The notes under the pieces are model-generated. The model had not been told where the DNA came from and did not search any database. It saw only the letters and a list, made by a program, of their open reading frames with translations. From Dehalococcoidia bacterium (GTDB lineage Bacteria > Chloroflexota > Dehalococcoidia > DSTF01 > JACRBR01), in the NCBI GenBank assembly GCA_021731085.1, contig JAKFYB010000013.1, positions 88,125 through 152,124 on the forward strand: a stretch of DNA of 64,000 bases. The letters run 5' to 3'. Positions 43,807 to 64,000 of the stretch are shown one piece after another. Both the position numbers and the translations under genes were made by a program. Within the stretch, counting starts at the first letter, position 1. The number at the start of each line of letters is the position of its first letter.

Positions 43807-46800
43807 GTGGGCCTAATCCCCGATCGCCTCGGACCGAAACTGGGCCTCTTCCTCGTAGGAATGTTCGCCGTTCTTGGTGTCGCTACGGCGGCGCTGATCA
43901 TCTTCGGCTTCGAACGTACACGCAACGACGCCACACAGAGCAGCCGCGAGGGCCTCGAACAAGAGGGCCAGCGAACACTCCTGCGTTTTACAACGAGCCA
44001 GGCGGCATACGCCCAGTCACAAATGGAAGCAACGGCGGGCTTCGCGGAACAGGCGTCGTCGTACTTCACAAATGCGCGTGCCAACAGGCCCGCCGATCCG
44101 ATACCCGCGTCCGCACTCTCAACGACAGCGCAGGGCGTGCACTACGACGCCAATCCGGATCGCCAGTCTGATGTTGTCGTGCCGCCGGGAAGCGAACTCA
44201 CTGCGGCCGTGTTGGCCGATGTTGGTTCATCGGCGGTGCTCGATGATCTGTTCCCCACGTTGCTCGCTGGCTTCGGCGGGCAGGCGCGCAGTTCGAACTT
44301 CGAGCCCATCTCCATCTACTTCCAGAGCGTGAACAACGTCGCACGCATCTATCCGCGGGTGCCGGACATCGAAGACCTGCCGCCGGTCGGCGACCAACTC
44401 CGCGCTTCGACGCTCGCCGTCGGGCCGGACGAGAATCCACAGCGCGCGACGCTCTGGAGCCCGCCATACGCAGATGTCAGCGGCAGGGGCACAGTCATGT
44501 CGGCCACTGTGCCCGTGTACGACGGAAGCACGTTCATCGGCGCGATGGGCGTGGATTTTTCGCTGGCGAGGCTCGTCGCCCAGATCGAGGGCATCAAGCC
44601 CACGACGAATGGATTCGCCTTCTACATGGATGAGGGCGGCTCGCTTCTTCCCACGACAGCCCAGCCGCGCATCGAAGCTGAACTGGACGACGCACGAAAC
44701 ACCGAGTTCGCGGCCGTCATTCAGGCAGTCACAGACGGTCGAGCAGAGGTTGGTCGCGCTGAAGTGGACGGGCGCGACATGTTCATCGCCCACGTGCCGC
44801 TCCAAGGCGTCGGTGGAACGCTTGCGTTGGCCGCGCCGGTCGATGAAGTGACGCTGCAAGCGGCAGCAGTGGAGTCGACCATCGAGGACGGAAGCCGCCG
44901 GACGTTGTTCTTCGCGCTTTCCGGCATTGCGCTCGTCTTCCTTTTGACACTTGGTGTCGCCGGTTTGTTGAACCGGCGCCTCGTACTCCAGCCGATTTCG
45001 GAGATCGTGGACGGAACGCGCGCACTTGCTGCGGGCGATCTGTCGCAGGAGATCCCGGTGAGGTCGGGCGACGAGCTAGGCACGCTCGCGGCGTCGTTCA
45101 ACGGCATGACGGGCGTACTCCGCGAACGCACGGACGACTTGCGCGAGCGAGAGGAGCAATACCGCGCCGTCTTCGAGGCGAGCAGCGACGGTTTCGTCAT
45201 CACGCGCATCGACGACGGTGCAGTTGTCGACGTGAATCCGGCGATGTGCTCGATGCATGGCTACACGCGCGAGGAAATGCTGCGCCTCAGTCCCATGCAG
45301 TTCATCCACGAGGACGACCATCACCTCTTTGGAGACTACATGGCGACGGTCGCGGCTGGTGGTGACTATCGCTGCCGGGCGCGCGACGTGCGCAAGGACG
45401 GTTCGCTGTTCCACGTCGACGTCATGGGCACCCCGGTGACGTACAGGGGCACACGTCACATCCTCGGCATGGTGCGAGACATCACTGCGCAGGTCGAGAC
45501 AGAGCGCATTCTCGAAGAGCGCGTGGAGGATCGCACGAGCGAACTGGCGGCGTTGCTGCAGGTTTCGCAGTCTGTGGCGGCAGCATTGGATAGCAAGAGC
45601 GTCGCCTCGGCGATCCTGACTGAGCTGGCGAAGGTGAGTGACTACGCGGGCGCCACGCTGGCGATAGTCGAAGGCGACGATCTCGTGATCGTCGACTCAT
45701 GGGGACCGTTCCGGGAGGAAGTTGTAGGCGGCCCGACATCGCGGGTCCCACGGAGCGCGATTCCCGTTGAATTCTGGGACGCGATGGAGCAAGCCGCGCC
45801 CCTCGTTGTGGATGACGTGCGGGGAGATTCAGTGCTCGCCCAAACGTACAGGCGCGTGTTTCGGCCATTCCTGGAGTTGCCGTCGTTTGCGTACATCCGG
45901 TCATGGATAGCAGTGCCCCTCGTCCGACAGGGTCGCATCGCCGGCATGTTGACCGCATCTCACGGCCAAGCAGGACACTTCACTGAAGAGAACACTCGGC
46001 TGATTCTGGCCGCGGCGAGTCAGGCAGCCGTCGCGATGGAAAACGCGCGCCTTTTCGAGCAGACGCACGAACGTACTGGCGAGCTTCAGATTCTTGTCGA
46101 TGTCGCGCAGCAGCTTTCCTCGACGATCGAACTGGATCCACTACTCGCGGTTGTACTCGACCAAGTGCAAAAAGTGGCGGAGTACGACCGCGTGTCCGTG
46201 CTACTGGCGGACGAAGAAGGGACCTTGCAGGTTCATACCACGCTGCGGCGTGCCGGTGACGAGAATCTGGGCGCGCCGCCGGGAGCCAAGTTCCCGCGTT
46301 CGACGGGACCGCTGTTCTGGGCGACGTTCGAACGCGGGCAGGCGGTCGTGATCGAAGACGTCCGTGCGGATACGCCGCTCGCTGCGGAGTATCGCAGCGC
46401 TGCGGCGCCACAGACTGATGCGACGCTCGCTGCGACGCGTTCCTGGATGGGCGTGCCCATGCTTGCGAATGACCGTCTGATCGGCATTCTGGCACTAACG
46501 AGCAGCGTGGTGTCGGCATACACGGAGAGGCAAGGCCAGCTCGCGACGGCGATCGCCAGCCAAGCAGCCGTCGCAATCGAGAACGCACGCCTATTCAGTG
46601 AAGCGGAGGAACGAACGCGCGAGCTCTCGACGCTGCTCGATGTTTCGAGAAACGTCGCCTCAACGATTGAACTAGAACCCCTGCTGAACCTGATCCTCGA
46701 TCAGGTCAAGGTAGTCGCACCGTTCTATCGCTCGGCGTTCATGGTGCTTGATGGCGATGACCTGGAGGTCGTCGCTGTCGGCACGCGTCAGGGCGCCGAA

Positions 46801-49800
46801 GATCCTTCCTACGTGAACCAGCTGGGCGTTCGCGTGCAGGCAGTCGGCTCGCCGATCTGGCAGCGCATGGACGCCGGTACACCATTCGTGATCGATGATA
46901 TCCACGGAGACTCACCTGAAGCGATCGGCTACCGGATGGCGGTTGGCGCTGATGCCGATACAACGTTCGCGAACATGCGGGGGTGGATGGGCGTGCCGAT
47001 CATGTTGAAGGATCGCGCCATCGGCATGTTGGCGCTCGGCAGCGACCAGCCGAACTTCTACACAGAGCAGCATGCACGACTCGCGCGGGCCGTCACCGAT
47101 CAGGCGGCCGTCGCAATCGAGAACGCTAGGCTGTTCGAGCAAACAGGTCATCAGCACCGCGAATCTGCGGCACTGCTCCAAATCTCGAACAGCCTGACCT
47201 CGACGCTGGACCTGGAACAGCTCGTTCACGTGATCCTGGAACAGTTGCATAGTGTCGTCGAGTACACGGGGTCGTCCGTGACTATCGTGAGCGGCGGCCA
47301 GCTGGAGGTCCTTGCATCGCGTGTGCTCGATCCGCCCAACACGCCCAACATTCGTGGAGCGCGGTTCAACCTGGATCAGGATTCAGAGACATGGCGAGCC
47401 TTTCGTCGCCTGGAGACTGTCGTCATCAGCGATATCTACGACGACACGACATTCGCGAAGGAGTATCGCGGTACCGTCGGGCGCCAGACGCTGCAGACTC
47501 CAACATTCGGGAGCATCAGGTCGTGGATGGCGGTGCCGCTCGCGATCAAGGGGGAGGTTATCGGCATGCTGTCGCTCTCCCGCAACGAGATCGGCTATTT
47601 CACGCCGGAACATACGCGTGTCGCTTCGGCCGTGGGTAAGCAGGCGGCCCTCGCGATCGAAAATGCACGGCTCTATCAGCACGCGGCTGAACGCACCGAA
47701 GAACTGTCGACGCTCCTCGACGTTTCGAGCGCCGTAGCATCAACGATTGAGTTGCAGCCGCTGTTGGACGTGATCCTGGAGCAGATTCATCGCGTCGCGT
47801 CGTACGACGGCGCAACGTTCTTCATCCTGCACGGCGACAGGCTGCGTGCGGAGTCCTTCGTCACACAGGACGACCCGAACATCGACCTCACGACGATCGG
47901 CCTCGAGATTCCGGTCGCCGGCTCCCAACTGTGGGACATGGCATCGCACGGTGAGACGATGATCATCGATGATATCTACGCCGACACACCAACAGCGGCA
48001 GCTTTTCGGGCGATCGCCGGGCCCGCGCTCAAGACGCGATTCCAGCGCATTAAGTCGTGGCTCGGTATTCCGCTGATGCGTGGCGGAAAGCCGATCGGCC
48101 TGTTGGCTCTCTCCGGCCACACCCAGGGAGTGTTCGACGTCACGGATGCTCGTCTCGCGCGAGCCGTCGCAGATCGCGCCGCACTCGCGATTGAGAACGC
48201 GAGGCTCTTTACCGAAGCGTCAGATCGCACGCGCGAGCTTTCGGCGCTTCTGGACATCTCGAAGGGGATTGCGTCAACGCTGGATCGCGGACCCCTGGTC
48301 GGGGCGATTCTCGACCAGTTGAAGGAACTCGTCGACAACAACGGAGCATCCATCATGCTGCGCAATGGCGACGTTCTTGAGATCGTGGACTACGACCGAT
48401 CCGTGCCTCGAAATGCCGCGAGCGTGCAGATTCCAGCGAGCTTCCCCATTGCGAACATGGCGCCGTTGTGGGCTTCCATGCTCGCCGGAGACAGCGTGAC
48501 CGTGAGGGACATGCAAGCGAACGATGGCGCGCGTGATGTCTTCCGGCAGGCCGTCGGCGAGAGCCTGCTGACTGGCGCCCTGAGTCACGTACGAGCGATG
48601 CTCGCTGTGCCACTTATCGTCCACGACGACGTCATAGGTACGCTCACGATCTCCAACCAAGTCCCAGGGTTCTTCACGGAGGAACATGCGCGGGTGGCGC
48701 GTGCCGTCGCCGACCAGGCAGCGCTCGCCCTCGAGAACGCCCGGCTGTACGAGGAGACGAGCCGGCGAGCACGCGAGACCGAAGCACTACTACGCGCCGA
48801 TGCTGAGCTGTTCCGGTCGTTGAGCCTCGATGACGTCTTTCAGGCGCTGTGCGATGTCGCGGTCGATGTGCTTGGTGTCAGCAAGTGCATGGTGACAACG
48901 ATCCACGACACCACCGGGCGCTACACGACGCGTGCCTCCCGAGGCGTGTCGCAGACGGCGCTCGCGCAAATGGCCCGGGTCCGTGACCGGCAACCGCGCG
49001 TCGTGCTGGGGTCTATGACCACGCCAATCGTCACGCCGGACGCACGGGCGGCGCTTCCAGAGATGGCTGGCATTTTCGAGATGGAGGGCATCATCTCGAC
49101 AATGGACGTACCGATCAGGATCGAAGGCCAGGTGCGCGGAGACTTTGCGCTGGCGTACACACGGCGCCACCAACCCGGAGCCGACGAGCAACGGCTGTTT
49201 CAAGCGCTTGCCGACCGCGCGGCAATCGCGATCCAGAACGCCGAGCTGTACGAACGCTCGCAGCAGGTGGCGTCGCTCGAGGAGCGCCAGCGGCTGGCAC
49301 GCGAACTGCACGACTCCGTATCGCAGGCGTTGTACGGCATCGCACTCGGGGCACGTACGGCGCGTACGCAACTCGACCGCGATCCGGTGAAGGCAGTCGA
49401 GCCGGTGGAGTACGTGCTCCAGCTAGCGGAGGCGGGGTTGGCCGAAATGCGCGCGCTGATCTTCGAACTGCGGCCTGAGTCGCTGCAGACGGAGGGCCTG
49501 GTGGCGGCGATCGAGAAGCATGTGGCGTCAACAAAGGCGCGCTATGGCCTGGAGGTTAATGCACAACTGGGCGTCGAGCCCGACGTCCGTCTCGACGTGA
49601 AAGAGGCGCTCTATCGCGTGACGCAGGAAGCGTTGCACAACATTGTGAAGCACGCGCAGGCGCGCCACGTCGATGTGCGGCTGGCTACAGCACATGGGGA
49701 CATCACGCTGGAGGTAAGCGACGACGGTCGTGGGTTCGACCCACAGGGTTCGTATCCCGGTCACGTCGGCTTACACTCCATGCGGGAACGCGTCGAGAAG

Positions 49801-49881
49801 CTGCACGGCACGATCGGCATCGAAAGCGCGCCCGGCGCGGGATCCAAGGTGAAGGTGCGCATTCCACTCAACGGTGTTTAG
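43807..49881 (+). CDS. giant sensor histidine kinase: 2 TM + extracytoplasmic sensor, HAMP, PAS, ~9 GAF domains, HisKA_3 + HATPase_c
   Basis: 2024 aa. TM helices near 43840 and 44900. HAMP (GDLSQEIPVRSGDELGTLAASFNGM). PAS (EQYRAVFEASSDGFVI). Iterated GAF modules each ending ..AIENARLF/Y..RTxELS.LLDVS. C-terminal NarL-type kinase core (ERQRLARELHDSVSQAL). Confidence 0.85.
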   Translation: MGLIPDRLGPKLGLFLVGMFAVLGVATAALIIFGFERTRNDATQSSREGLEQEGQRTLLRFTTSQAAYAQSQMEATAGFAEQASSYFTNARANRPADPIPASALSTTAQGVHYDANPDRQSDVVVPPGSELTAAVLADVGSSAVLDDLFPTLLAGFGGQARSSNFEPISIYFQSVNNVARIYPRVPDIEDLPPVGDQLRASTLAVGPDENPQRATLWSPPYADVSGRGTVMSATVPVYDGSTFIGAMGVDFSLARLVAQIEGIKPTTNGFAFYMDEGGSLLPTTAQPRIEAELDDARNTEFAAVIQAVTDGRAEVGRAEVDGRDMFIAHVPLQGVGGTLALAAPVDEVTLQAAAVESTIEDGSRRTLFFALSGIALVFLLTLGVAGLLNRRLVLQPISEIVDGTRALAAGDLSQEIPVRSGDELGTLAASFNGMTGVLRERTDDLREREEQYRAVFEASSDGFVITRIDDGAVVDVNPAMCSMHGYTREEMLRLSPMQFIHEDDHHLFGDYMATVAAGGDYRCRARDVRKDGSLFHVDVMGTPVTYRGTRHILGMVRDITAQVETERILEERVEDRTSELAALLQVSQSVAAALDSKSVASAILTELAKVSDYAGATLAIVEGDDLVIVDSWGPFREEVVGGPTSRVPRSAIPVEFWDAMEQAAPLVVDDVRGDSVLAQTYRRVFRPFLELPSFAYIRSWIAVPLVRQGRIAGMLTASHGQAGHFTEENTRLILAAASQAAVAMENARLFEQTHERTGELQILVDVAQQLSSTIELDPLLAVVLDQVQKVAEYDRVSVLLADEEGTLQVHTTLRRAGDENLGAPPGAKFPRSTGPLFWATFERGQAVVIEDVRADTPLAAEYRSAAAPQTDATLAATRSWMGVPMLANDRLIGILALTSSVVSAYTERQGQLATAIASQAAVAIENARLFSEAEERTRELSTLLDVSRNVASTIELEPLLNLILDQVKVVAPFYRSAFMVLDGDDLEVVAVGTRQGAEDPSYVNQLGVRVQAVGSPIWQRMDAGTPFVIDDIHGDSPEAIGYRMAVGADADTTFANMRGWMGVPIMLKDRAIGMLALGSDQPNFYTEQHARLARAVTDQAAVAIENARLFEQTGHQHRESAALLQISNSLTSTLDLEQLVHVILEQLHSVVEYTGSSVTIVSGGQLEVLASRVLDPPNTPNIRGARFNLDQDSETWRAFRRLETVVISDIYDDTTFAKEYRGTVGRQTLQTPTFGSIRSWMAVPLAIKGEVIGMLSLSRNEIGYFTPEHTRVASAVGKQAALAIENARLYQHAAERTEELSTLLDVSSAVASTIELQPLLDVILEQIHRVASYDGATFFILHGDRLRAESFVTQDDPNIDLTTIGLEIPVAGSQLWDMASHGETMIIDDIYADTPTAAAFRAIAGPALKTRFQRIKSWLGIPLMRGGKPIGLLALSGHTQGVFDVTDARLARAVADRAALAIENARLFTEASDRTRELSALLDISKGIASTLDRGPLVGAILDQLKELVDNNGASIMLRNGDVLEIVDYDRSVPRNAASVQIPASFPIANMAPLWASMLAGDSVTVRDMQANDGARDVFRQAVGESLLTGALSHVRAMLAVPLIVHDDVIGTLTISNQVPGFFTEEHARVARAVADQAALALENARLYEETSRRARETEALLRADAELFRSLSLDDVFQALCDVAVDVLGVSKCMVTTIHDTTGRYTTRASRGVSQTALAQMARVRDRQPRVVLGSMTTPIVTPDARAALPEMAGIFEMEGIISTMDVPIRIEGQVRGDFALAYTRRHQPGADEQRLFQALADRAAIAIQNAELYERSQQVASLEERQRLARELHDSVSQALYGIALGARTARTQLDRDPVKAVEPVEYVLQLAEAGLAEMRALIFELRPESLQTEGLVAAIEKHVASTKARYGLEVNAQLGVEPDVRLDVKEALYRVTQEALHNIVKHAQARHVDVRLATAHGDITLEVSDDGRGFDPQGSYPGHVGLHSMRERVEKLHGTIGIESAPGAGSKVKVRIPLNGV

Positions 49882-53837: not shown

Positions 53838-55916
53838 CTAACTTTTCATAGCGAGTTGCATCAGCTGCAATTGAAGCGACATCGCTTCCTCTCCCTCCGC
53901 TGGCACGAGACGCGCCCACTCGCCCTCCGCCAGGAGCTCCCACGAATTGCTGCTGTCTACGAGGGCAGTGTCGAGGATATCCATGATTCGCCGCTTGAGG
54001 CGCTTCGAGTCAATCCTCACCAGTGTTTCGACGCGCCGATCGAGATTTCGATGCATCATGTCGGCGCTGCCGATGAACACCTCGCTCTTTCCAGCATTCT
54101 CGAAGAAGTACATGCGCGAGTGCTCAAGGAAGCGGCCGACGATGCTTTGCACGCGTATGTTGGAGCTGAGACCATCGACCATCGGACGCAAAGTGCAGAT
54201 TCCACGCGCAATGATGTCGACCTGAACACCTGCAGTCGACGCGGCATACAAGGCTTCGATTATCTGCTCGTCGACCAACGAGTTCAGCTTCATGATGATT
54301 CGCCCGCCCTTGCCTTCGCGGGCGTGCTGAGCTTCGCGGTCGATGAGCTTGATCATGCGCTCGCGAAGTTCATGCGGCGCTACGAGAATCGAGTCATAGC
54401 TGGCGCGGCGCGAGTATCCCGTCAAATAGTTGAACAGGTCGCCCACGTCGTGGCCCAGCTGCTTGTTCGCCGTGAGCAGGCCGATGTCCTCGTACCCACG
54501 CGCCGTCGTCGGATTGTAGTTGCCGGTGCCGATGTGCACGTAACGCCGAAGGCCTGAACGCTCCTGTCGCACAACCATGCTCAATTTGCAATGCGTCTTC
54601 AGGCCCACCAGTCCATACACGACGTGACAGCCAGCACGCTCGAGAGTTCGCGCCCAGTTGATGTTGGCGACCTCATCAAAGCGCGCCTTGATCTCGACGA
54701 GCACGACAACTTGCTTGCCCGATTCGGCCGCCTCGATTAGCGCCTCGACGATCGGACTGTCGCCTGATGTGCGGTAGAGCGTCTGCTTGATGGCAAGCAC
54801 CGTCGGATCGGCAGCAGCTTGCTCGATGAACGCCTGCACACTCGTCACGAACGACTCGTACGGATGATGGACAAGAACGTCGCGTTTGCGAATAGCTGCG
54901 AAGACATCCGGCGCGTCATCGTCCAGGACGCGAAGGTCGCTGTGCGTAACGGGCCGAAACGCGCGGAACTTCAAATCCGCGCGCGCGGTGTCGTACAGGC
55001 TCCAGAGAAACGTCACGTCCAGCGGACCAGGCAGAATGAACGCATCATCCTCCGAAAGCTGCAGCTCGCGAATCAGCATCGCCCGGACTTGCGCCGGCAT
55101 CCCTTCTTCGACTTCGAGACGGACTGCCTTGCTGATGCGTCGGCGCGTCAATTCCGATTCAAGCGCACTGAGGAGGTCCTCGGCACGGTCATCGTCCACT
55201 TCGAGTTCTGCATCACGCGTCACGCGAAATGCGTGACTCTCGACGACCTTCATGCCATGAAACAGGTCGTTCAGGTTCGCGCCGATAACATCCTCCAGCG
55301 GCACGTGACAACCGTCCCCGAGGGCGAAGAGACGCGGGAGGATCGGCGGGACCTTGATGCGTGCGAAGTGCGTCTTGTCCTCATCGCGCACAAACACAGC
55401 GAGGTTGAGCGAGCGGTTCGAGATGTATGGAAAAGGGTGGCCGGGATCAACGGCCAACGGCGTGAGGATCGGGAAGACGTGGTCGCGAAACGTCTCGCGC
55501 ATTCTCTTTCGTTGATCGCGATCCAGATCCGCCCACCTGAGAATCTTGATTCCCTCAGCGTGCAACTCGGGCGTGACATCTTCGGCGAACGTCTGGCTGA
55601 GACGCGTCATCTGCTCTGTGACTTGCGACGAGATCAATGAGAGCTGGGCGTCGGGCGTAAGGCCGTCAGCCGATAGCTCCTGCAGGCCGGCGGCCTGCTG
55701 ACGCTTCAAGCCAGCGACGCGAACCATATAGAACTCATCGAGATTGCCCGCAACGATCGCGAGAAAGCGCGCGCGCTCTAGTAGGGGTGTGGCTGGATCC
55801 TCCGCCAGTTGCAGGACGCGATCATTGAACTGAAGGTATGACACTTCGCGGTTCAAGTAGCGGGATTCGGCGTTCGAATCCGCGTGGACGACATGTTCTT
55901 GTATCGAGACCACCAT
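53838..55916 (-). CDS. ppk: polyphosphate kinase 1
   Basis: N-terminal RYLNREVSYLQFNDRVL, two PLD-like HKD regions; 692 aa. Confidence 0.9.
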   Translation of the reverse strand: MVVSIQEHVVHADSNAESRYLNREVSYLQFNDRVLQLAEDPATPLLERARFLAIVAGNLDEFYMVRVAGLKRQQAAGLQELSADGLTPDAQLSLISSQVTEQMTRLSQTFAEDVTPELHAEGIKILRWADLDRDQRKRMRETFRDHVFPILTPLAVDPGHPFPYISNRSLNLAVFVRDEDKTHFARIKVPPILPRLFALGDGCHVPLEDVIGANLNDLFHGMKVVESHAFRVTRDAELEVDDDRAEDLLSALESELTRRRISKAVRLEVEEGMPAQVRAMLIRELQLSEDDAFILPGPLDVTFLWSLYDTARADLKFRAFRPVTHSDLRVLDDDAPDVFAAIRKRDVLVHHPYESFVTSVQAFIEQAAADPTVLAIKQTLYRTSGDSPIVEALIEAAESGKQVVVLVEIKARFDEVANINWARTLERAGCHVVYGLVGLKTHCKLSMVVRQERSGLRRYVHIGTGNYNPTTARGYEDIGLLTANKQLGHDVGDLFNYLTGYSRRASYDSILVAPHELRERMIKLIDREAQHAREGKGGRIIMKLNSLVDEQIIEALYAASTAGVQVDIIARGICTLRPMVDGLSSNIRVQSIVGRFLEHSRMYFFENAGKSEVFIGSADMMHRNLDRRVETLVRIDSKRLKRRIMDILDTALVDSSNSWELLAEGEWARLVPAEGEEAMSLQLQLMQLAMKS

Positions 55917-56201
55917 CGGTCTAGCTTACTCCCTGCCTGCCGGCCGGATCGGCACGAATGAAGACCCGAACGCCAGCAGGATCCGCGGCTCCGCACCCAG
56001 AGGCGACGCGGTCTTACACTCAGACTATCGGAGGCTGGGTCTCCACACTGCAGGCCACTGTTCACAAGCAATCGCGCGTTGATCAGCGTCGAGCTTCGGG
56101 AAGCGGTCGACGTACGTGGATCCCAGACACAGGAAGGTGCCAGCGAAGCCGGCTGGGCCTAATCCACAGCCACGACAAATCTGCTTGTTGGCCACGTTGC
56201 C

Positions 56202-56570
56202 TCAGGCAAGCACCTGCAGATAGCCACGGTCACCATCAACAGAGACCTGTTGGCCGTCGCGGATCAAGGCGGTGGCGCCGGACGCTATCACCACCGGGAT
56301 CCCATACTCCCTTGCGAGCGTCGCCGCGTTCGAAAGCGCGCCACCGGATTCCAGTACCAGCGCACCAGCGTTCGCCAATAGCTGTGAAAGTCTCGGCTGT
56401 GGCAGGCGGCAAATCAACACATCGCCCGGCTGCACTAGCTCCAGCGGATGCATCGCGGAGATCACCCGCGCAGAACCAACCACGCATCCTCGCGACCCCG
56501 GAGTCCCCTGGATCACGGGACTCGCGTGCGCGTTCACGATTGCAACATCCGACGCTGGAGCTCGCATCAA
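56202..56570 (-). CDS. PEP-utilising-enzyme mobile-domain protein (stand-alone, degenerate)
   Basis: Matches the PEP-utilizers swivel domain (..VLESGGALSNAATLAREYGIPVV..), but the phospho-His position reads Asn. Confidence 0.45.
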   Translation of the reverse strand: MMRAPASDVAIVNAHASPVIQGTPGSRGCVVGSARVISAMHPLELVQPGDVLICRLPQPRLSQLLANAGALVLESGGALSNAATLAREYGIPVVIASGATALIRDGQQVSVDGDRGYLQVLA

Positions 56571-56611
56571 GCAGAAGCTACAGCCGCGAGATTAACGCTA
56601 CGTCATCCGAG

Positions 56612-56628
56612 GTTAACGCGCGGTTAAC
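56612..56628. promoter_or_regulatory. palindromic operator-like site GTTAACGCGCGGTTAAC
   Basis: Near-perfect palindrome in the 225-bp intergenic region. An extra half-site TTAACGC lies at 56592. Confidence 0.4.
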
Positions 56629-56689
56629 GGGCCTTAGGGTGGTCTTCTCAATCGACCAATTGTTACATGGACATCGGCACCAAGGCCTC

Positions 56690-56705
56690 GTTAACGCGCG
56701 TTAAC
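56690..56705. promoter_or_regulatory. perfect 16-bp palindrome GTTAACGCGCGTTAAC
   Basis: Second copy ~78 bp from the first, upstream of the PEP-utiliser gene and downstream of the LuxR-HTH gene. Confidence 0.4.
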
Positions 56706-56795
56706 CAAGCGTAAACCGACCCCGCTTACGATCACAGACGTTGGAACCACAGTGCTCTAGGTGGCGGAAACTACGCAGTTCAGCCGAGGCGGTCA

Positions 56796-57137
56796 TCAAT
56801 CCGCGCGTAGCAGGCCACGTCCAACGCCTTCGAGGTCGCCACGGTTGTGCGCACCAATCTTGCGGTAGATGTTGCTGATGTGGCGCTCAACCGTCCGTTC
56901 GCTGAGAGCGAGGCGCATGCCGATCTCGCAGCAGCTGCTAACTGCCACTAGCAGCAGCCGAAGAATCTCCATCTCCCGCGGCGTTAAGTCCGAGTCGACA
57001 TGGGCTGCGTCGCTCGGCAGTATCGAGCCAATGATTGAGTCGTTCGTTCCACGCAGAGAAGTGTCATGTCCCGCGGCGAGAAGGCAGGCCAGCGCGTCAA
57101 GTCGGAGCTGTGGCAGCCACCGTATTGAGCGGCGCAC
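56796..57137 (-). CDS. small LuxR-type HTH DNA-binding protein
   Basis: C-terminal LTPREMEILRLL..ERTVERHISNIYRKIG; N-terminal part unrelated to receivers. Confidence 0.45.
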   Translation of the reverse strand: MRRSIRWLPQLRLDALACLLAAGHDTSLRGTNDSIIGSILPSDAAHVDSDLTPREMEILRLLLVAVSSCCEIGMRLALSERTVERHISNIYRKIGAHNRGDLEGVGRGLLRAD

Positions 57138-57244
57138 CAGTCAAAATGAGTGGCACCCAGGTTAGTGAGGTTGACCGTGAGCGAGCACTCCACAGGGGGT
57201 GTGAACGGCTCTTCACAGATCGAGAACGTGCGTCTAAGTGAAAA

Positions 57245-57321
57245 ATGGTCGGGGCGACAGGATTCGAACCTGCGACCTCCTGACCCCCAGTCAGGTGCGC
57301 TACCGGGCTGCGCCACACCCC
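57245..57321 (-). tRNA. tRNA-Pro (anticodon GGG)
   Basis: 77-nt cloverleaf on the minus strand: acceptor CGGGGTG/CGCCCCG, T-loop TTCGAAT, anticodon stem CCTGA/TCAGG with loop CTGGGGG (U33, GGG, G37), encoded CCA. Confidence 0.85.
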
Positions 57322-57322
57322 G
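57283..57322. repeat. attL-side 40-bp direct repeat (tRNA-Pro 5' half through anticodon loop)
   Basis: cccccagtcaggtgcgctaccgggctgcgccacaccccga, identical to 63890..63929. Confidence 0.9.
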
Positions 57323-57430
57323 ACTCTTGAATCTGGAAACAGCACCTGACCTGAAATCTCTTGTAGCATAGAGCTCGAATCCCATATAACTTCTTGGTTC
57401 CCCTGGGGGTGAAACCGGAAGGATTCGACC

Positions 57431-58372
57431 ATGCCACGCACTGTCTCCGAGCCCATTACAACACAGGGCGATATCCACGACAACATCGTTTCCTTCCGAC
57501 GTCACCTTCGGGCACGTGCCAGATCACCGCGCACCATCGAGACATACATGGAAGCATGCAACCAGCTGGCGCGATTTCTCTCTGAGCACGGCATGCCTAC
57601 GGACGTTGCAAAGATTCATCGCGAGCACGTCGAGGCGTACATCATAGAGCTCGTAGAGAAGTGGAAACCGGCGACCGCGAACAATCGGTTTAAGAGCTTG
57701 CAGGCCTTCTTCAAGTGGCTCGCCGAGGATGGCGAAATCAAGTCATCGCCCATGGAGAAGATGAAGCCGCCGAAGAACGAACCACAGCCGGTGCCGGTAT
57801 TCACCGACGGCCAGCTAATGGCACTGCTCGCGACCGCCGAGAAGCCTGACACCTTCGAAAACCGGCGCGACCTGGCGATACTCCGCGTATTCATTGATAC
57901 CGGCGCTCGCCGCGCCGAGGTCGTGGGCCTGCGCTACACGGCAGATGAAGACAACGACATCGACCTAGAGAATGGGTTGCTGCGCGTGATGGGCAAAGGT
58001 GGGCGCGGGCGCGTGGTTCCGATTGGGAACAAGACAGTCAAGGCGCTCGACCGCTACCTTCGGAAGCGCAAGCAGCATCCAGCACACTCCCTGCAGAACC
58101 TTTGGCTCGGTCGTAAGGGGCCGTTCGCCGAGAGCGGCGTTGCACAAATGATCAAAGATCGGGGCCGTCGCGCTGGCCTTGGTGAGATACATCCGCACCA
58201 GCTGCGGCATACGTTCGCCCATAGCTGGCTGTCAAATGGCGGGCTAGAGGGTGACTTGATGCGCTTGGCTGGGTGGCGGTCTCGATCTATGCTCGATCGA
58301 TACGCAGCTACAACAGCTTCCAAGCGAGCTCAAGACGCCCACCGCAAACTGTCGCCTGGAGACAGAATCTAA
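57431..58372 (+). CDS. int: tyrosine-type site-specific integrase
   Basis: N-terminal SAM-like domain. Catalytic [22 protein letters not shown] (R-H-R-Y). Adjacent to the tRNA; GGAAGGA RBS. Confidence 0.9.
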
Positions 58373-58399
58373 TCTCACAGCGCCATACGCTAGGGACCC

Positions 58400-60871
58400 A
58401 TGCCTGAGATTGGTTTGCAAACCGCGCTAGAAATGATCGTCCAGTCCCACGATTCGGGCCGAAGGCATTGCTTCGTTGTGGGTTCGGGCCTCTCAGCTCC
58501 TATCGTTCCCGGAGCGCGCACGATTATCGATGAGTGTGGGCGGAGGGCACCGGTTTCCGACGAGACCACAATTCCGAGCGACCCGATGGAGCAATACTCC
58601 TTCTGGATGCGCAGGGCATTTCCAAGTCCCGCCTTGCGCGGGGAATACCTCGCTGAACTCATCCGTGGAAAGCCCATCTCGGCTGCTAACCTTCGACTCG
58701 CGCACCTTGTCACTGGATCCGACTTCGGCAGAATCGTGATCACGCCAAACTTCGACGACTTTTTCACGCGCGCCGTCGCGCTATTCGGGGGCCAGCCAAT
58801 TGTGTGTGACCATCCCTTCACCACGGGACGGGTTTCAATGGCCTTGTCGTCGACAGAGATTCAAGTAGTTCATGTGCACGGGACCCATTGGTTCTACGAC
58901 GCGTGCAACCTCGACCATGAAATCGTAGCTCGCGGGACTTGGGACGCCCAGACTCCGACCATGCTCGACCTTCTGCAAAACATCTTCCGGGAGCGTGCTC
59001 CTCTTGTCATAGGTTACAGCGGGTGGGAAAGTGACGTCGTCATGAAAGCCCTACGACACCAACTCAGCGTCAGGGGTTTCCCGGACAACTGTTACTGGTT
59101 CTGTCACAATCGAGATGACCGCGCCCGCCTTCCAGATTGGCTAACGAGCGATCCGAATGTTTATCTGGTACTGCCCGATAGAGAGGTTTCGAAGTCCTCC
59201 CGAACTGACTCTTCTCTTCCACCAGCAGCAGCAGCTACAGCTCCAGCGGCCCTAGTCGACGGGTCAGGTGGAGAGTCTGTTGACGAAGACGAGTCAGCTT
59301 CCTCGGTGCTCGACGATGTCGACTCCGGAGCCAAGCCGACACTAAGCGCTCAGGCAGTGTTGGATGGACTGCTACAGAGTCTCTCTGTACCGATTCCTCG
59401 GTTGCTCGACGATCCGATCGCCGCCTTAGCAGACCGGCTGGCGAATGAACTAGCGCCCTCCGAGTCGCCGATCGACGACCTATATCGAATTTCATCCGTC
59501 GTTGAGAAGATCCGATCGGCGGCGGCGTGCTATGACCAGCCCGGCGGCGACTCCGACCCACTGGAGCCAATACGAGCCTCGCTCAGGAGTCTCGACTACT
59601 CAGGCGTGATTCAATCGATTTCGAACCTCGAACGCAACGATCTAACCCAAGAACAAAAGAGGGAGATTGTCGAGATAGCCCTCGCTGCCAGCAGGGCAAT
59701 TTCGGGCCCTTCTGAAAGCGAGTTACCCGGCTATGATCTCGTGGTCTCCTACGGCGATGAGATCGCCAAAGACGATCCGACGGTTCAAGACCGCGTTGCT
59801 ACCGCCATTTACCTGAAAGGCCTGGCGTTGTCTTTGTTGGATCGTGACGACGAAGCACTCCAGACACTTGATGATTTCCTAGAACGCTACAGCACCGTCC
59901 CGGCTCAGGCCCGTTCCACAGCCGTCGCAATGAACGTAAAGGCGGGTATTGTTCAGTCACTAGGTGAACCCGAGGAGGCGCTGCGTATCGTCGATGACAT
60001 CGTCGAGCGCTTCGGGGGTACGTCCGACCCGGGTGTGCTTGCCCACGTCGCCCACGCCATGAGCGCCCGAGCCCGCTATCTCGGCTCGAACCAACTGGAT
60101 CAGGCACTAGAGGCCTTTGCCGCATTGGACGAGCGTTTCGGCTCGTCGGAAGAAACGGAAATACGGATTGAGGTCGCCCGTGCTCTCGTCGCAAAGGCCT
60201 ACTTACTTTCATCCTCTGGACAGCTAGAAAGCGCGATCGAAGTCTGTGACCGTGTAATCGCGGACTTTTCACAGGATCGAGACGAAAAATTGCGCGCTGC
60301 GGTTGCAACGGCGGGATATCGAAAAGGAGCAAGCCTCGGAGGCCTATCCCGCAATGAGGAGGCCGTCGCCGCGTACGAGTGGGTCATTACCCATTTTGGC
60401 GAGGACACGAACGAAGAAATCGTCGAGAGTGTAGCCGCTGCACTCTTTGGCAAGGCGTATCGCCTTAGTCGCCTCAAAAAATCCGAGGCTGCAGTCGAAA
60501 CCTACGACGAACTCGTGGACCGCTATGGCGAGACATCTGACGAGACCATTCTCGTGATTGTCTCCAAAGCACTTGGTAACAAGGGGAGCCAGCTCCAGAA
60601 GCTTGGCGACGAGGAGGCGGCTCTCGATTCATACGGCCTTGTGGTCGAGCGCTTTCTGAATAGCGCACACAGCAATTTGCGCAGTCACGCGGCAAAGATT
60701 TCAAATCGCCGGGCTGCATTACTGAACAAGATGGGGCGCCCGCTGGAGGCGGCCACGCAATACAGTCTGGTCGCCAACTTGGATGAGGACAGATCCCCCA
60801 GAACGATGAAGGCCGAGATTGCTAAAGCGCGCTTGGAGCTGGAAGAAATCGACAGCGCTGACGAAGAGTGA
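58400..60871 (+). CDS. SIR2-domain protein with C-terminal TPR-like helical repeats (DSR-like candidate anti-phage protein)
   Basis: N-terminal SIR2-like motifs FVVGSGLS, ITPNFDDFF (catalytic Asn), VVHVHGTHW (His). Acidic linker. ~7 degenerate ~40-aa helical repeats (..EEAL..YD.VV.RFG..D..I..VA.AL..KG..). No P-loop. 27 bp after int. Confidence 0.65.
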   Translation: MPEIGLQTALEMIVQSHDSGRRHCFVVGSGLSAPIVPGARTIIDECGRRAPVSDETTIPSDPMEQYSFWMRRAFPSPALRGEYLAELIRGKPISAANLRLAHLVTGSDFGRIVITPNFDDFFTRAVALFGGQPIVCDHPFTTGRVSMALSSTEIQVVHVHGTHWFYDACNLDHEIVARGTWDAQTPTMLDLLQNIFRERAPLVIGYSGWESDVVMKALRHQLSVRGFPDNCYWFCHNRDDRARLPDWLTSDPNVYLVLPDREVSKSSRTDSSLPPAAAATAPAALVDGSGGESVDEDESASSVLDDVDSGAKPTLSAQAVLDGLLQSLSVPIPRLLDDPIAALADRLANELAPSESPIDDLYRISSVVEKIRSAAACYDQPGGDSDPLEPIRASLRSLDYSGVIQSISNLERNDLTQEQKREIVEIALAASRAISGPSESELPGYDLVVSYGDEIAKDDPTVQDRVATAIYLKGLALSLLDRDDEALQTLDDFLERYSTVPAQARSTAVAMNVKAGIVQSLGEPEEALRIVDDIVERFGGTSDPGVLAHVAHAMSARARYLGSNQLDQALEAFAALDERFGSSEETEIRIEVARALVAKAYLLSSSGQLESAIEVCDRVIADFSQDRDEKLRAAVATAGYRKGASLGGLSRNEEAVAAYEWVITHFGEDTNEEIVESVAAALFGKAYRLSRLKKSEAAVETYDELVDRYGETSDETILVIVSKALGNKGSQLQKLGDEEAALDSYGLVVERFLNSAHSNLRSHAAKISNRRAALLNKMGRPLEAATQYSLVANLDEDRSPRTMKAEIAKARLELEEIDSADEE

Positions 60872-60925
60872 GTAACCTACCAACCTCACGCAGGGTGGAC
60901 CACTAGGAATATTTCGTCCTCTAAG

Positions 60926-60954
60926 GGGGTTGCGCGAAAGAATCGCACAACCCC
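60926..60954. terminator. hairpin downstream of the SIR2 gene
   Basis: gggggttgcgcg-aaagaat-cgcacaacccc, ~10-bp imperfect stem; no T-run, as expected in a high-GC genome. Confidence 0.35.
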
Positions 60955-60983
60955 GTCGTCTCAGGGTCTGGTCTTGGAACCCG

Positions 60984-61062
60984 CTGTCAAGAGGTATCCG
61001 TTACGGTGCTCCGCCCCCGTCCCACCGCACCGCTCCGCCGTAACAAACCCTCCCCTTGACAG
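60984..61062. other. long imperfect inverted repeat between the convergent SIR2 gene and the hypothetical gene
   Basis: Outer arms ctgtcaagagg / cctccccttgacag, inner arms ccgttacgg / ccgtaac. Confidence 0.3.
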
Positions 61063-61386
61063 CTAGTCTTTGAAGCCCGAAGGAAAGTCTTTGGTAGGCA
61101 CTGGATCGCCAGGTCGCCCTAATCGAACGACCATCTCGAAGTCTGGAGGGTAGCGGCGCCGGACTCCCGGCCCGTTGGTCGTAATTCGACAGCTCCCACA
61201 ACGTGAGCAACGATAGACGAACAAGGCGCGGTCAAACGGCTCTAGTTCCATCCAGTCGTAGAACAGGTTTAGAGCCCCTATGGCGTCCTCGCGGGACAAC
61301 ATATTCCAGTTGTGTTTGTCATCGCCCTTCATTCGACTCGGTGGAGCTCCTAAACAGCCCGCATCCTTCGTCCATGGTTCAAACAT
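61063..61386 (-). CDS. hypothetical protein (Cys-containing)
   Basis: 107 aa, CSRCGSC motif; codon usage consistent with the island. Confidence 0.3.
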   Translation of the reverse strand: MFEPWTKDAGCLGAPPSRMKGDDKHNWNMLSREDAIGALNLFYDWMELEPFDRALFVYRCSRCGSCRITTNGPGVRRRYPPDFEMVVRLGRPGDPVPTKDFPSGFKD

Positions 61387-61548
61387 CTACTCGCTCCCTC
61401 CCTCGCGTCGTTTTGCGGTCTGTCTCCTGACCCAATCATCAAACTCGCGCCACGGTTCATCCATCCCCACAGCGATCGCGGTACCACCCCCGTACTCCCA
61501 AGGCGATATCGAGACGTGCGACGGTGAGCCGCTCACCGAGAGCACCAG

Positions 61549-62277
61549 CTACGTGCCTCCCGGCCACCTTCCCAAGAAGGGATGCCAGAACCTCAGGTCG
61601 CGCCAGTGCTTGGAACACGACCATACACGCCGACCGCTAGGCCAAAGCTCGGAGTCCTTAAGCATGTACTTTGCAAAATATGCACAACCTCCGCTAATGT
61701 TGCGGAGCCTTCGAACATCCACGATCTTCCCGAAGCCGGCTTGGACGGCCAATCGGCGCAAGACAGCGACAGGAAGCCACTCAAGACCCGCGATCGCGTT
61801 GTGATAGTGGATTGCCCCGCGTGACTGGAGCTCACCGACGCGAAAGAACTCGATCCTTGCTGCCGGGTATTTGCGTCGGAGAAGCGTGATGAAGTGGTTC
61901 CACCTTTTCGCTGCGCCGACGTTCCATGCCTCGATGGCCTCAGCGGTCGTCAACCCCCCGCCAGTGCCAGGTGCCGTAAGCGTGACGAATAGCACCGAAT
62001 TGGGACGAGCCTTCAACCCGGCAAGCAGTGATGCCTTCGTGCGCTTGAGCCAGTGATTTGGCCCGCAATGCGGGCATCGGCGGCGCTTGCACGGGAGCAC
62101 TAACTCGTCCCCGACACTCGAACCAGCGGGCCGCATGGTAATCGGCACTGCATACTGTGCCGCGAGAGCCATCGCCTTACGATTGCGGCGGGCGTTCAAC
62201 ACTCGTCTCATCCGAATCGGCGTAGGACAAGCACCAGACCCGTCAAACCCGCTGTGGAGTTGTTCTACCGGTATCAA
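61549..62277 (-). CDS. rolling-circle replication initiator (HUH endonuclease, RepSA/Rep_trans-like)
   Basis: HUH motif GAIHYHNAI; catalytic Tyr motif AYFAKYMLK; TTG start. Confidence 0.55.
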   Translation of the reverse strand: MIPVEQLHSGFDGSGACPTPIRMRRVLNARRNRKAMALAAQYAVPITMRPAGSSVGDELVLPCKRRRCPHCGPNHWLKRTKASLLAGLKARPNSVLFVTLTAPGTGGGLTTAEAIEAWNVGAAKRWNHFITLLRRKYPAARIEFFRVGELQSRGAIHYHNAIAGLEWLPVAVLRRLAVQAGFGKIVDVRRLRNISGGCAYFAKYMLKDSELWPSGRRVWSCSKHWRDLRFWHPFLGRWPGGT

Positions 62278-62564
62278 GGGAAGCCTCGATCCGGCCCGCG
62301 CTTCCGCGCACGCGCCTGCGCCGACTTGAGCGCCAAACGCGCATAGAACGCCTTGCGCGCCGAGGCGGCACGCTGCGCCCGCTCCGCGGGAGGCAGCGTG
62401 CCATCCGGATCGACCTCGCGTTCGAAGCGTGAGTCTGCGGCGGCGCGTGCGGCAGCGGTTGCGGCTGAGCGGTCAGAAGTGAACGCCCACTTTGTGTGCG
62501 CGGCTAGACGAGCTTGGAGGGATCGAAGGTTTGGGGACGCGGACGACACACAGCACCTGTGCAT
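62274..62564 (-). CDS. small Ala/Arg-rich ORF translationally coupled to rep
   Basis: Its stop TGA overlaps the rep TTG start. Composition is low-complexity, so weak. Confidence 0.25.
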   Translation of the reverse strand: MHRCCVSSASPNLRSLQARLAAHTKWAFTSDRSAATAAARAAADSRFEREVDPDGTLPPAERAQRAASARKAFYARLALKSAQARARKRGPDRGFP

Positions 62565-62709
62565 TCGTCCGCAGTGATGGTTCAGCGGTAAGGTGGACGC
62601 CGTCGCTTAGTTACCTAATCCGATCGTCGTGACGCACACCCTATTCGTTTCGGGTACGCTACCACATCGAACATAGGTTCGCAAATGGCAATTTGGAGCA
62701 AACAAGAAA

Positions 62710-63804
62710 ATGAAATGGAAATTCTGGGAAAGGGAGCCGGTCCCGAGTCCTCTTGTATCTGCTGAGAATATCGACCTACGGGATCTAATCTACTTCGACG
62801 TAGAGCGCGTGGCGTCTATTTACAGTCAGCTACGCGGCGGCCTTGTCAGGGAAATACAGGACGCTGTCGAATCCACGGGAGAACTTCGCGGTAGCCTGAC
62901 GGTTGATGCCAAGCTTCTCAAGACGGAACACGGCTCAACCGTAGCCGAAAGAGTGTCCCGCCTTGAATCCAAAGTGTTTCATCATGACCTTCTCGTCCGC
63001 GTTGAAGACGACCTTTCCGCCCGCGGGTTATTGCTCGACCTGCATGAATCGATGGTCCCTGACAACGCAGATCAGGCGCGACACAGGATTACCGCCAGGC
63101 CATATGTCAGATCGGAGGGGCTGGTTGTCATTGATGACTACTCTGGTCTCCAGTCGATCGCGCGAAACTTCAATTCTCTCGCAGCATTCATTCAACGCTG
63201 CGGCCTCAGCAACTTCGAGCAGTCGGATGCGTATCGAGAACTGACGGAAATCGTCAGTTCTCTTGAGCGCAACGCATCGACCGCAAAGGGACCCGAGCGA
63301 CAACAAGCGAGGGATGAGCTCCGAGCGAACCAGGAAGCACTAGCCGCGCTTCGGCAGGCGGCTGCACCACTCAACACAGTCGATCAGTGGCTAATTGATG
63401 GCATCATCGCTTGGATCGATGCGTTTCTCACCGATCACATCGCACTCCGCGTCTTTCCCTTTGAAGAGCTACCAGAATTTTCTATCTTCGCAAAGCTCAA
63501 GCGTGACTGTTTCACTGATGACGGACTATCGAGCGCACGATATGCCTACGGCTCGCGCCCAAACGTTAAGTTGACCGTCCTCGGATTGGTCACCTCGCTA
63601 CCGCCCGTGGCGCCGATGGATCGAGATCCCCGCTCGACCGCTCCGACTAGCGACGTACTCACCGAACAACAGACATTCGGCAAAGCGTTCGAGAGCATAT
63701 TCGATGCACTGGATGGGCTGGAGCAATTTTCCCGCTGGTCAGACCACTATCCAAATGCAGGAATCTATCCACTCGCGGTTTATCGAAGCATTCGTCGTCA
63801 ATAG
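62710..63804 (+). CDS. hypothetical protein (364 aa), island cargo of unknown function
   Basis: Clean ORF with visibly lower G+C than the chromosome. No domain recognised by inspection. Last gene before the right-end repeat. Confidence 0.5.
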   Translation: MKWKFWEREPVPSPLVSAENIDLRDLIYFDVERVASIYSQLRGGLVREIQDAVESTGELRGSLTVDAKLLKTEHGSTVAERVSRLESKVFHHDLLVRVEDDLSARGLLLDLHESMVPDNADQARHRITARPYVRSEGLVVIDDYSGLQSIARNFNSLAAFIQRCGLSNFEQSDAYRELTEIVSSLERNASTAKGPERQQARDELRANQEALAALRQAAAPLNTVDQWLIDGIIAWIDAFLTDHIALRVFPFEELPEFSIFAKLKRDCFTDDGLSSARYAYGSRPNVKLTVLGLVTSLPPVAPMDRDPRSTAPTSDVLTEQQTFGKAFESIFDALDGLEQFSRWSDHYPNAGIYPLAVYRSIRRQ

Positions 63805-63847
63805 CCCGTACTGGTACAGAATCGCAGATAACTTCGGGTTTTTCGCT

Positions 63848-63878
63848 ACATAGCGCAGAAGTGGGAGCACTGCGCTAG
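63848..63878. repeat. inverted repeat TAGCGCAG-N11-CTGCGCTA next to attR
   Basis: Perfect 8-bp arms; candidate integrase/excisionase binding site. Confidence 0.3.
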
Positions 63879-63889
63879 CGCTGGAGTAG

Positions 63890-63929
63890 CCCCCAGTCAG
63901 GTGCGCTACCGGGCTGCGCCACACCCCGA
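63890..63929. repeat. attR-side 40-bp direct repeat (displaced partial tRNA-Pro 5' half)
   Basis: Identical 40-mer; diverges immediately on both sides. Confidence 0.9.
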
Positions 63930-64000
63930 ACCGACCACGATCATATCACGGGCCGGGGGTCGGTCGTTAGTCGTTGAGGATTGGGCCCTGAGCCCCTTAG

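Follow-up and report, generated by a model that had tools for sequence, protein, structure and literature searches.

Near the right end of a 64,000-nucleotide stretch of contig JAKFYB010000013.1 from a Dehalococcoidia bacterium (positions 88,125 to 152,124; the whole stretch is referred to here as the window), a tRNA-Pro(GGG) gene is separated by 6.6 kb from a second, displaced copy of its own 5' half. The DNA between the two copies is probably best explained as an integrative element residing at tRNA-Pro(GGG), which carries its own Xer-like tyrosine integrase and, as candidate immunity cargo, a gene for a SIR2-TPR protein. Comparison with related loci makes it very probable that this island is an integrated element of the family to which the integrase belongs. 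The features that define the insertion are the following.

57246..57322, minus strand: intact tRNA-Pro(GGG) gene, 77 nucleotides (nt), CCA encoded, nt 1-39 within the attL core (ARAGORN, Rfam RF00005)
57284..57323: core of the left attachment site (attL), the first of two identical 40-bp copies, running from tRNA nt 39 to nt 1 and one base beyond
57431..58372, plus strand: Xer-like tyrosine integrase, 313 amino acids (aa), with SAM-like N-terminal and catalytic domains (PF00589, E 2e-24; PF13495, E 3.5e-13)
63890..63929: core of the right attachment site (attR), displaced tRNA-Pro 5' half, nt 1-39 at 63890-63928 in the minus sense plus one upstream base
63930..64000: chromosomal sequence beyond the island, originally upstream of the tRNA gene, resembling the distal flanks of the related loci L081 and L089 (alignment A4)

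The tRNA gene is the sole ARAGORN call in the window and is supported by Rfam at 64 bits, with no other Rfam family matched. A repeat search of the window identified the exact 40-nt direct repeat, and a repeat of this length within 64 kb is far beyond chance. Identity ends precisely with the last nucleotide of the 7-nt anticodon loop and, on the other side, one base past the tRNA. The preliminary description of this DNA placed the first copy at 57283-57322 and equated the repeat with tRNA nt 1-38; the perfect 40-bp repeat and its derivation from the tRNA 5' half stand, with the first copy shifted by one base and the extent amended to nt 1-39 plus one upstream base. Direct reading of the flanks of the two copies confirmed that they are unrelated. 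The copies are spaced by 6,606 bp, with 6,566 bp between them, and the integrase gene, which begins 107 bp from the attL core as expected of an integrase abutting the tRNA, lies between the tRNA gene (tDNA) and the fragment. Thus, in the terms of the Islander database, the fragment is in the same orientation as the tDNA and on its 5' side, and the spacing falls within the 2-200 kb range.

The G+C content of the island is 57.65% vs 63.8% for positions 1-53700 of the window, where 6.6-kb windows have a standard deviation of 0.7 and a minimum of 62.3. The island is clearly lower in G+C, as had been claimed, while the chromosomal value is about 64% and not the roughly 68% given before. Low G+C is not limited to the island, because the region immediately to the left of the tRNA (53838-57245), which contains ppk, a 248-aa open reading frame (ORF) without matches and a LuxR/GerE regulator, also has only 59.7%. 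The gene order shared with relatives stops at the start of ppk.

All catalytic residues of the integrase are present (R160, K189, H256, R259, W282 and Y291), make up the R-K-H-R-(H/W)-Y set of tyrosine recombinases and are invariant in 30 relatives. The protein was ruled out as a housekeeping XerC or XerD by the NCBIfam equivalog models (155 bits vs the cut-off of 335 for XerC, 140 vs 330 for XerD), an identity that is also contradicted by the variable mobile contexts of the related integrase genes. More than 6,000 homologs were found at E <1e-20, and the contexts of the top 120 (58-89% identity, 300-334 aa, save one truncated copy of 255 aa) were fetched and scanned with ARAGORN and repeat searches; all repeat distances are start-to-start. 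A metagenome scan with the integrase as the query yielded 8 short loci only. Every locus that encodes an integrase of at least 59% identity and has enough upstream sequence contains a tRNA on the opposite strand or, in two cases, a tRNA 5'-half fragment alone. The distance from the tRNA 5' end to the integrase start is 101-120 bp, and the targeted genes are Pro(GGG), Gly(TCC), Gly(CCC) and Ala(TGC). Wherever the downstream sequence sufficed, a 37-40-nt copy of the tRNA 5' half was found 1.6-5.9 kb away, in six lineages. The principal loci, with integrase identity to the window protein, are as follows.

L081-L087: integrase 87%; Pro(GGG), gap 106 bp; nt 1-39 repeated twice more, first at +5.9 kb and again 1.66 kb beyond that
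L089-L091: integrase 81%; Pro(GGG); copy of nt 2-39 at +4.9 kb
L191: integrase 87%, truncated; Pro(GGG); 5' half repeated twice more, first at +4.5 kb and again 0.6 kb beyond that
L093: integrase 63%; Gly(TCC); copy of nt 1-37 at +5.7 kb
L095-L098: integrase 61%; Ala(TGC); copy of nt 3-40 at +1.6 kb; integrase-only element
L101: integrase 59%; Gly(CCC); contig too short for the repeat test

The two loci with a fragment alone, L107 and L108, are phage fragments from IMG/VR that encode an integrase 61% identical to that of the window next to a 39-nt 5' fragment of tRNA-Gly(CCC). In both, the cassette (L107:6950-8075 and L108:1930-3050) is set within the head-morphogenesis module, between portal/MuF genes and genes for the ClpP protease and major capsid protein, and ARAGORN calls no full tRNA there. 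The cassette is evidently an unintegrated (free) phage-type attachment site (attP) that carries the tRNA 5' half. Changes in array length are also apparent. In particular, L083:2121-9700 and L088:1-6047 are 99.98% identical, and L083 contains an extra 1.66-kb segment bounded by cores, whereas L088 runs from the first distal core directly into the chromosomal flank; therefore, core-bounded segments are gained or lost within one population. The repeats at this tRNA, whose invariance among relatives the preliminary description would have taken as an argument against an island, are thus variable. Together with the same layout in relatives, the free attP and the variable cargo, this bears out the earlier proposal of a site-specifically integrated island at the tRNA 5' half.

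In view of these comparisons, it is extremely improbable that the repeat arose independently of any integration, by local duplication of part of the tRNA gene or through faulty assembly. Such an origin would fit the failure to see an empty site or an excision junction for the island of the window. It is contradicted by the recurrence of the same geometry in at least six independent lineages and at four tRNA genes, by the free attP in phage and by motifs in the arms that are conserved 53-54 bp from each core. The arm features of the window are these.

57324..57430: island left arm, the 107-bp spacer between integrase and tRNA; TTGTAG at 57361-57366, 18-nt spacer, TATAAC at 57385-57390, facing the integrase
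63819..63835, plus strand: second copy of a 17-bp arm motif, GAATCGCAGATAACTTC, 54 bp inside the attR core

In an alignment of left arms from seven elements that target four tRNA species (A3), TTG and TATAA, about 18 nt apart, are invariant. The first copy of the 17-bp motif, GAATCCCATATAACTTC, is located at 57377-57393 in the left arm, and the common pattern GAATCSCAKATAACTTC occurs exactly twice in the window, both times on the plus strand and 53 and 54 bp inside the cores. This pattern was derived post hoc, with conservation across loci as independent support: in four right ends of Pro-targeting elements (alignment A4), AGATAACTT is invariant about 55 bp inside the distal core. The Pfam scan detected no arm-binding domain in the integrase, and the arm motifs may therefore be sites for its conserved 96-aa partner protein described below.

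The geometry of integration dictates that the upstream region of the intact tRNA is island DNA. The intact tRNA would accordingly run from an island promoter, as the preliminary description had it; the island origin of the upstream DNA follows from the layout, whereas the promoter itself was not recovered, the promoter and terminator scan of the attachment arms having returned nothing useful. The chromosomal flank to the right of attR contains a minus-strand TATGAT box (63940-63945) at a distance of 11 nt from nt 1 of the tRNA, and alignment A4 shows a TATGAT/TACGAT box on the tRNA strand at the same distance of 11 nt upstream of nt 1. This placement is consistent with a displaced native tRNA promoter.

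Among distant relatives of the integrase (36-52% identity), both orientations of the tRNA half occur. For example, L120 (47% identity) has a classical 3'-half repeat, with nt 32-75 of tRNA-Val, so that the supply of the 5' half appears to be specific to the sub-clade.

Several of the fetched loci show further peculiarities. L191:9643-14811, within a 3.6-Mb contig, is a decayed member of the family with an integrase of 255 aa, a 155-aa fragment of a Rep_trans Rep and three tRNA-Pro 5'-half cores, each 92% identical to the core of the window. In L095 and L096:8515-10951, a P4-type integrase (Arm-DNA-bind_3) adjoins the 3' side of the tRNA-Ala(TGC) gene and the Xer-like integrase its 5' side, so that a single tRNA gene provides an attachment site in each of its halves; cas genes of type I-E are found a few kb further on. 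In L093, 45 nt from the 3' half of tRNA-Gly(TCC) (nt 31-75, 98%; positions 7590-7634 and 9820-9864) recur 2.2 kb away, on the 3' side of the tRNA, and the housekeeping-looking gene bipA/typA lies between the two 3'-half copies, the displaced one of which may be the scar of a lost 3'-type island. In L113 and L124, with integrases 51% and 43% identical, the D-arm-like motifs CTCTACCACTGAGCTA and CTCTACCAGCTGAGCCA are found 130-250 bp upstream of the integrase gene, where no tRNA is called; they could represent additional 5' fragments of the attP type in viral contigs.

The remainder of the island is occupied by a Rep gene, the 96-aa partner, two cargo genes and a few minor features.

58400..60871, plus strand: SIR2_2 and TPR protein, 823 aa (Pfam); SIR2 domain about residues 1-260, disordered acidic linker 263-310, helical/TPR solenoid about 315-823
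60872..61062: spacer between convergent genes, containing two strong hairpins; DNA fold -34.9 kcal/mol, z -1.96
61063..61386, minus strand: 107-aa ORF, downstream of Rep
61387..62277, minus strand: HUH rolling-circle Rep frame, broken at codon 243 of about 297 by an in-frame TAG (61549-61551) (PF23343, E 2e-10)
62274..62564, minus strand: 96-aa basic protein, partner of the integrase family (phrog_2842, E 3e-8)
62710..63804, plus strand: DUF6414 protein, 364 aa (PF19952, E 1.8e-14)

The hairpins between the convergent genes may be terminators or a single-strand origin. Two of the ORFs that had been regarded as unannotatable can now be assigned, one to DUF6414 and the other to the conserved integrase partner; for the 107-aa ORF, that label is retained, with no match in Pfam, PHROG or PADLOC. 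A 174-aa ORF (61280-61804, plus strand), antisense to Rep and without matches, was rejected as probably spurious. The 96-aa protein was found by tblastn, at 42-66% identity, in more than 50 of the fetched integrase loci, both phage and non-phage; neither the Pfam scan nor a PDB profile search produced a match. It may be a recombination directionality factor that acts in excision, or a regulator.

Close relatives of the island share a module that consists of the integrase, a 184-215-aa ORF, an 80-96-aa ORF, a Rep_trans Rep and small ORFs, and is followed by variable cargo (a Na+/H+ exchanger, SLFN (Schlafen)/AlbA_2 or Mrr_cat). The island of the window retains the integrase and the 96-aa ORF, has a Rep of a different family on the opposite strand and, among the fetched loci, is the only member found with SIR2-TPR or DUF6414.

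The Rep frame matches PF23343 with 41.2 bits (cut-off 27.8), whereas the match to RepSA (PF20199, E 5e-7) reaches only 29.7 bits, under the Pfam cut-off of 34. A library-wide phmmer search detected 750 relatives, mostly of 200-340 aa; a weak tblastx match of L001 to the Rep region was judged spurious. The diagnostic motifs, namely motif I (FVTLTAPG), the HUH motif (HYHNAI) and the two-tyrosine motif YFAKY (YFAKYMLK), all precede the in-frame TAG, which cuts off the C-terminal 18% of the protein and leaves no uninterrupted full-length frame. The HUH Rep recognized earlier is therefore present by family and motifs, albeit with a premature stop. The nearest relative, P0246 (74% identity, 304 aa), has Tyr at the TAG codon (...PPGTYVV... 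vs ...PGGT*LVL... in the window), and the 53 in-frame codons past the stop still align with it (VSISPWEY..., PWREFDDWVRR). Because the frame past the TAG remains homologous, the stop appears to be either a recent nonsense change or a sequencing error. If it is genuine, the element may no longer replicate.

This raises the possibility that the island is a grounded remnant that integrated as described and is now decaying and fixed, capable of neither replication nor transfer, with only the SIR2-TPR and DUF6414 genes, useful to the host, being kept. Such decay would account for the stop codon at the position of the Tyr in P0246 and for the loss of the 184-215-aa ORF next to the integrase, and decayed members are common at this site, as illustrated by the truncated integrase of L191, the integrase-only 1.6-kb element of L095 and the 1.66-kb remnant in L081. 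The attachment cores of the window are, on the contrary, 100% identical, compared with 92-98% in relatives; the integrase is full length with all catalytic residues; and the stop codon follows all three Rep motifs and precedes a frame that is still conserved. We consider a grounded remnant a substantial possibility, somewhat on the doubtful side.

The presence of an 823-aa SIR2-domain protein, noted before, is confirmed. The catalytic signature is intact and invariant across 39 homologs, including GxGxS (G28xG30xS32), T115/N117/D119 and H160-G161, whereas a motif search revealed neither a CxxC zinc module nor a Walker A motif (P-loop). About 70 homologs with 24-37% identity occur sporadically in Acidobacteriota, Cyanobacteria, Myxococcota, Bacillota, Planctomycetota and a methanogen; those examined are stand-alone genes, one of them on a Priestia megaterium plasmid. 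The AlphaFold2 model (predicted local distance difference test score, pLDDT, 86; predicted template modelling score, pTM, 0.78) consists of a SIR2 fold and a TPR solenoid of at least 20 helices. For the full-length model, the top Foldseek match in the PDB is DSR2 (8w56_B, E 9e-7, template modelling (TM) score 0.26), followed by generic TPR proteins. By sequence, the SIR2 domain is nearest to SIR2-APAZ of short prokaryotic Argonaute (pAgo) systems (PDB 8in8 at 2e-5). Residues 60-240 match the Aga_SIR2 models of PADLOC at 1e-14, and all 39 homologs match them as well, with the best at 8e-25. The PADLOC check of the island proteins recovered no known defence-system model beyond this SIR2-domain level; in particular, no DSR model was matched by SIR2-TPR or 38 homologs even at E up to 10.

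SIR2-based depletion of NAD+ is a well-established defence theme, and the SIR2-TPR protein is a candidate NADase effector with a repeat sensor, for which a role in defence is suggested by its architecture. It shares with DSR2 the combination, in one polypeptide, of an N-terminal SIR2 NADase-type domain with catalytic Asn and His and a long C-terminal alpha-solenoid. In DSR2, the solenoid captures a phage tail-tube protein and thereby turns on the NADase (PMC11850899). In contrast to DSR2, SIR2-TPR has TPR rather than HEAT-like repeats, a 48-residue disordered linker in place of the MID domain and no sequence-level match to the PADLOC DSR models. SPARSA SIR2-APAZ has the closest SIR2 domain by sequence, whereas APAZ is missing from SIR2-TPR, and neither the island nor the examined neighborhoods of homologs contain a pAgo gene. 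None of the island ORFs contains a SLOG or TIR domain according to Pfam and PADLOC, so there is nothing of Thoeris, and the SIR2-STAND-TPR architecture of Avs5 is not seen either, there being no Walker A motif or NTPase match in Pfam and the intervening residues 263-310 being disordered. The architecture of a pAgo-type SIR2 joined to TPR is not represented in PADLOC, and a literature search found no paper on 'SIR2-TPR'. Accordingly, the candidate defence gene of the preliminary description is upheld as to its invariant catalytic residues, DSR2-like architecture and pAgo-type SIR2 domain, and the protein is neither Thoeris nor a recognized DSR.

We slightly favor the view that SIR2-TPR is an anti-phage NADase. 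It may instead have nothing to do with phages, acting as a deacylase, an ADP-ribosyltransferase or a scaffold in host regulation, or serving the element itself in addiction or exclusion. The absence of a validated defence-model match beyond the SIR2 domain, the neighbors of the homologs examined, which are housekeeping, toxin-antitoxin and efflux genes rather than defence clusters, and the start of the gene 28 bp past the integrase, consistent with co-transcription with the element machinery, are all compatible with such functions. These are nevertheless unlikely given that the zinc module of true sirtuins is missing, the SIR2 domain has its nearest counterpart in the SIR2 NADases of short-pAgo systems, the family is sparsely spread across phyla with members on mobile DNA, and sister elements hold the defence-type Mrr_cat and SLFN/AlbA_2 genes in the same slot.

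The second cargo protein belongs to DUF6414, a patchily distributed family (54 homologs, 28-43% identity). Its AlphaFold2 model (pLDDT 83) has no meaningful neighbor in the PDB or viral structure sets. According to one survey, the DUF6414 domain is that of DolA, which together with the ClpB-related DolB makes up the Dodola system (bioRxiv 10.1101/2024.10.26.620412). The resemblance to Dodola is confined to this domain: the island encodes no ClpB-like protein, and PADLOC gives no DolA or DolB match, for DolA not even at E up to 10. In a prophage represented by L189:6667-13295 and L190:6841-13295, the gene for a DUF6414 homolog (37%) comes immediately behind that for a Mu-type portal protein and ahead of that for the major capsid protein, where a member of a supposed defence family would hardly be expected.

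This context might be taken to suggest that the island is a phage satellite or hitchhiker that shares its integrase module with helper phages and is packaged by them, with DUF6414 acting on capsid assembly, all the more so as the integrase clade and the 96-aa partner are also found in phage genomes. Pfam and PHROG scans of the island ORFs identified, to the contrary, no capsid, terminase-small, packaging-site or primase features; the DUF6414 fold has no counterpart in PDB or viral structures, its prophage context is a single one, and the sister elements carry non-phage cargo. A phage satellite is therefore very improbable. Neither SIR2-TPR nor DUF6414 has a match in the phage collection.

Several observations weigh against the explanation of the island as an integrative element with immunity cargo. 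An empty attB was not found: the ppk of the window is 77% identical to that of a soil Dehalococcoidia/Chloroflexota metagenome-assembled genome (MAG) and 62-66% identical to those of other Chloroflexota MAGs in the contig scan, and these relatives keep the ppk-NUDIX synteny and have no tRNA-Pro beside ppk. No excised form of this particular island was detected, nor did the scan of the arms provide a convincing sigma-70-like promoter for the tRNA in the island arm. The Rep is interrupted by the TAG, such that this copy may be immobile, and the ORF that follows the integrase in all close relatives is missing. On the cargo side, the structural match to DSR2 has a low TM score (0.26) and is aided by generic repeat similarity; the DSR, Thoeris, SIR2-HerA and Avs models of PADLOC all fail to match SIR2-TPR; the two homolog neighborhoods examined are not defence islands and have no conserved neighbor; and DUF6414 lacks its Dodola partner in the island, with no PADLOC match for the protein or for 44 homologs.

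Two classes of known elements resemble the island most closely. In the Islander collection, 159 of the 3,919 islands display a 5' fragment of the tRNA gene, compared with 3,760 that display a 3' fragment, and attachment sites centered on the anticodon loop are common (Hudson, Lau and Williams 2015, PMC4383910). Like the 5'-fragment subclass, the island of the window combines an intact tDNA with a displaced fragment in direct orientation upstream and a tyrosine integrase between them; the site centered on the anticodon loop and tandem arrays at one tDNA are further shared features. Unlike in Islander, the 5' orientation is fixed here in a whole clade of Xer-like integrases that is common to Rep elements of 1.6-6.6 kb and phages. 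A literature phrase search on 5'-end tRNA integration found no match. The actinomycete integrative and conjugative elements (AICEs) of the pSAM2 type are similar in their tRNA-Pro site, their combination of a tyrosine integrase with a RepSA-related HUH Rep, their small size and their high-G+C host. In pSAM2, it is the tRNA 3' half that is regenerated; the integrase, accompanied by Xis, is of the lambda type, and genes for transfer (FtsK-like Tra and Spd) are present. The island differs in its Xer-like integrase, in supplying the 5' half and in a RepSA match below the cut-off; none of its ORFs contains an FtsK-like Tra or Spd domain.

The following scheme would account for these observations. 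The Xer-like tyrosine integrase encoded by the 6.6-kb element would have inserted that element into tRNA-Pro(GGG) of the chromosome, through an attP that carries a copy of the tRNA 5' half (nt 1-39), with the crossover probably at or near the anticodon loop. With such a crossover and the 5' half on attP, the intact tRNA comes to lie at the left end, where it would be composed of the chromosomal 3' half and a 5' half and upstream DNA supplied by the island, while the original 5' half and the native upstream region would have been pushed to the right end. The integrase and the 96-aa partner would constitute the core of the family, in small elements with rolling-circle Reps and in phages alike; the excised circle would be copied by the HUH Rep, and the present copy may be partly disabled by the TAG. 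The cargo would comprise the single-gene SIR2-TPR and an orphan DUF6414 (DolA-type) gene. In the manner of DSR2, the TPR solenoid would sense a phage or invader protein, upon which the SIR2 domain would hydrolyze NAD+ and the infection would be aborted. The scheme predicts an attB junction that joins the tRNA 3' half, the core and ACCGACCACG, that is, ...GCGACCTCCTGA followed by CCCCCAGTCAGGTGCGCTACCGGGCTGCGCCACACCCCGA and ACCGACCACGATC, and an attP junction that joins GCTGGAGTAG, the core and CTCTTGAATC, that is, ...GCGCTGGAGTAG followed by the same core and CTCTTGAATCTGG. In the predicted empty site, tRNA-Pro(GGG) would be directly followed by ACCGACCACGATCATATCAC.

Elsewhere in the window, upstream of the region studied here, a 2,024-aa ORF is located at 43807-49881 on the plus strand.

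The broadest reading, in which a clade of Xer-like integrases routinely exchanges the 5' half of host tRNA genes, together with the promoter, for DNA of the element and SIR2-TPR is a new stand-alone abortive infection (Abi) system, is tentative, and we regard it, in both parts jointly, as rather doubtful. If it holds, the element and not the host would control the expression of the targeted tRNA, and the displaced native promoter would fire into the distal cargo slot, a hot spot for defence genes. The clade would be common to phages and rolling-circle elements of 1.6-6.6 kb in Chloroflexota-like and related soil bacteria, and the pAgo-type SIR2-TPR would deplete NAD+ with its TPR solenoid recognizing a phage protein. 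These findings extend known themes and do not overturn current understanding. They provide a clean comparative example of the rare tRNA islands with 5' fragments, tied to one integrase clade, a 96-aa partner and arm motifs, and the tRNA half that an element carries appears to be set by the lineage of its integrase, which is a testable rule. Very small elements that consist of little more than an integrase and a Rep appear to shuttle single defence-type genes in poorly studied soil phyla, and SIR2-TPR, with about 70 members in several phyla, is nominated as a candidate for one-gene NADase immunity, with the orphan DUF6414 as the second candidate.

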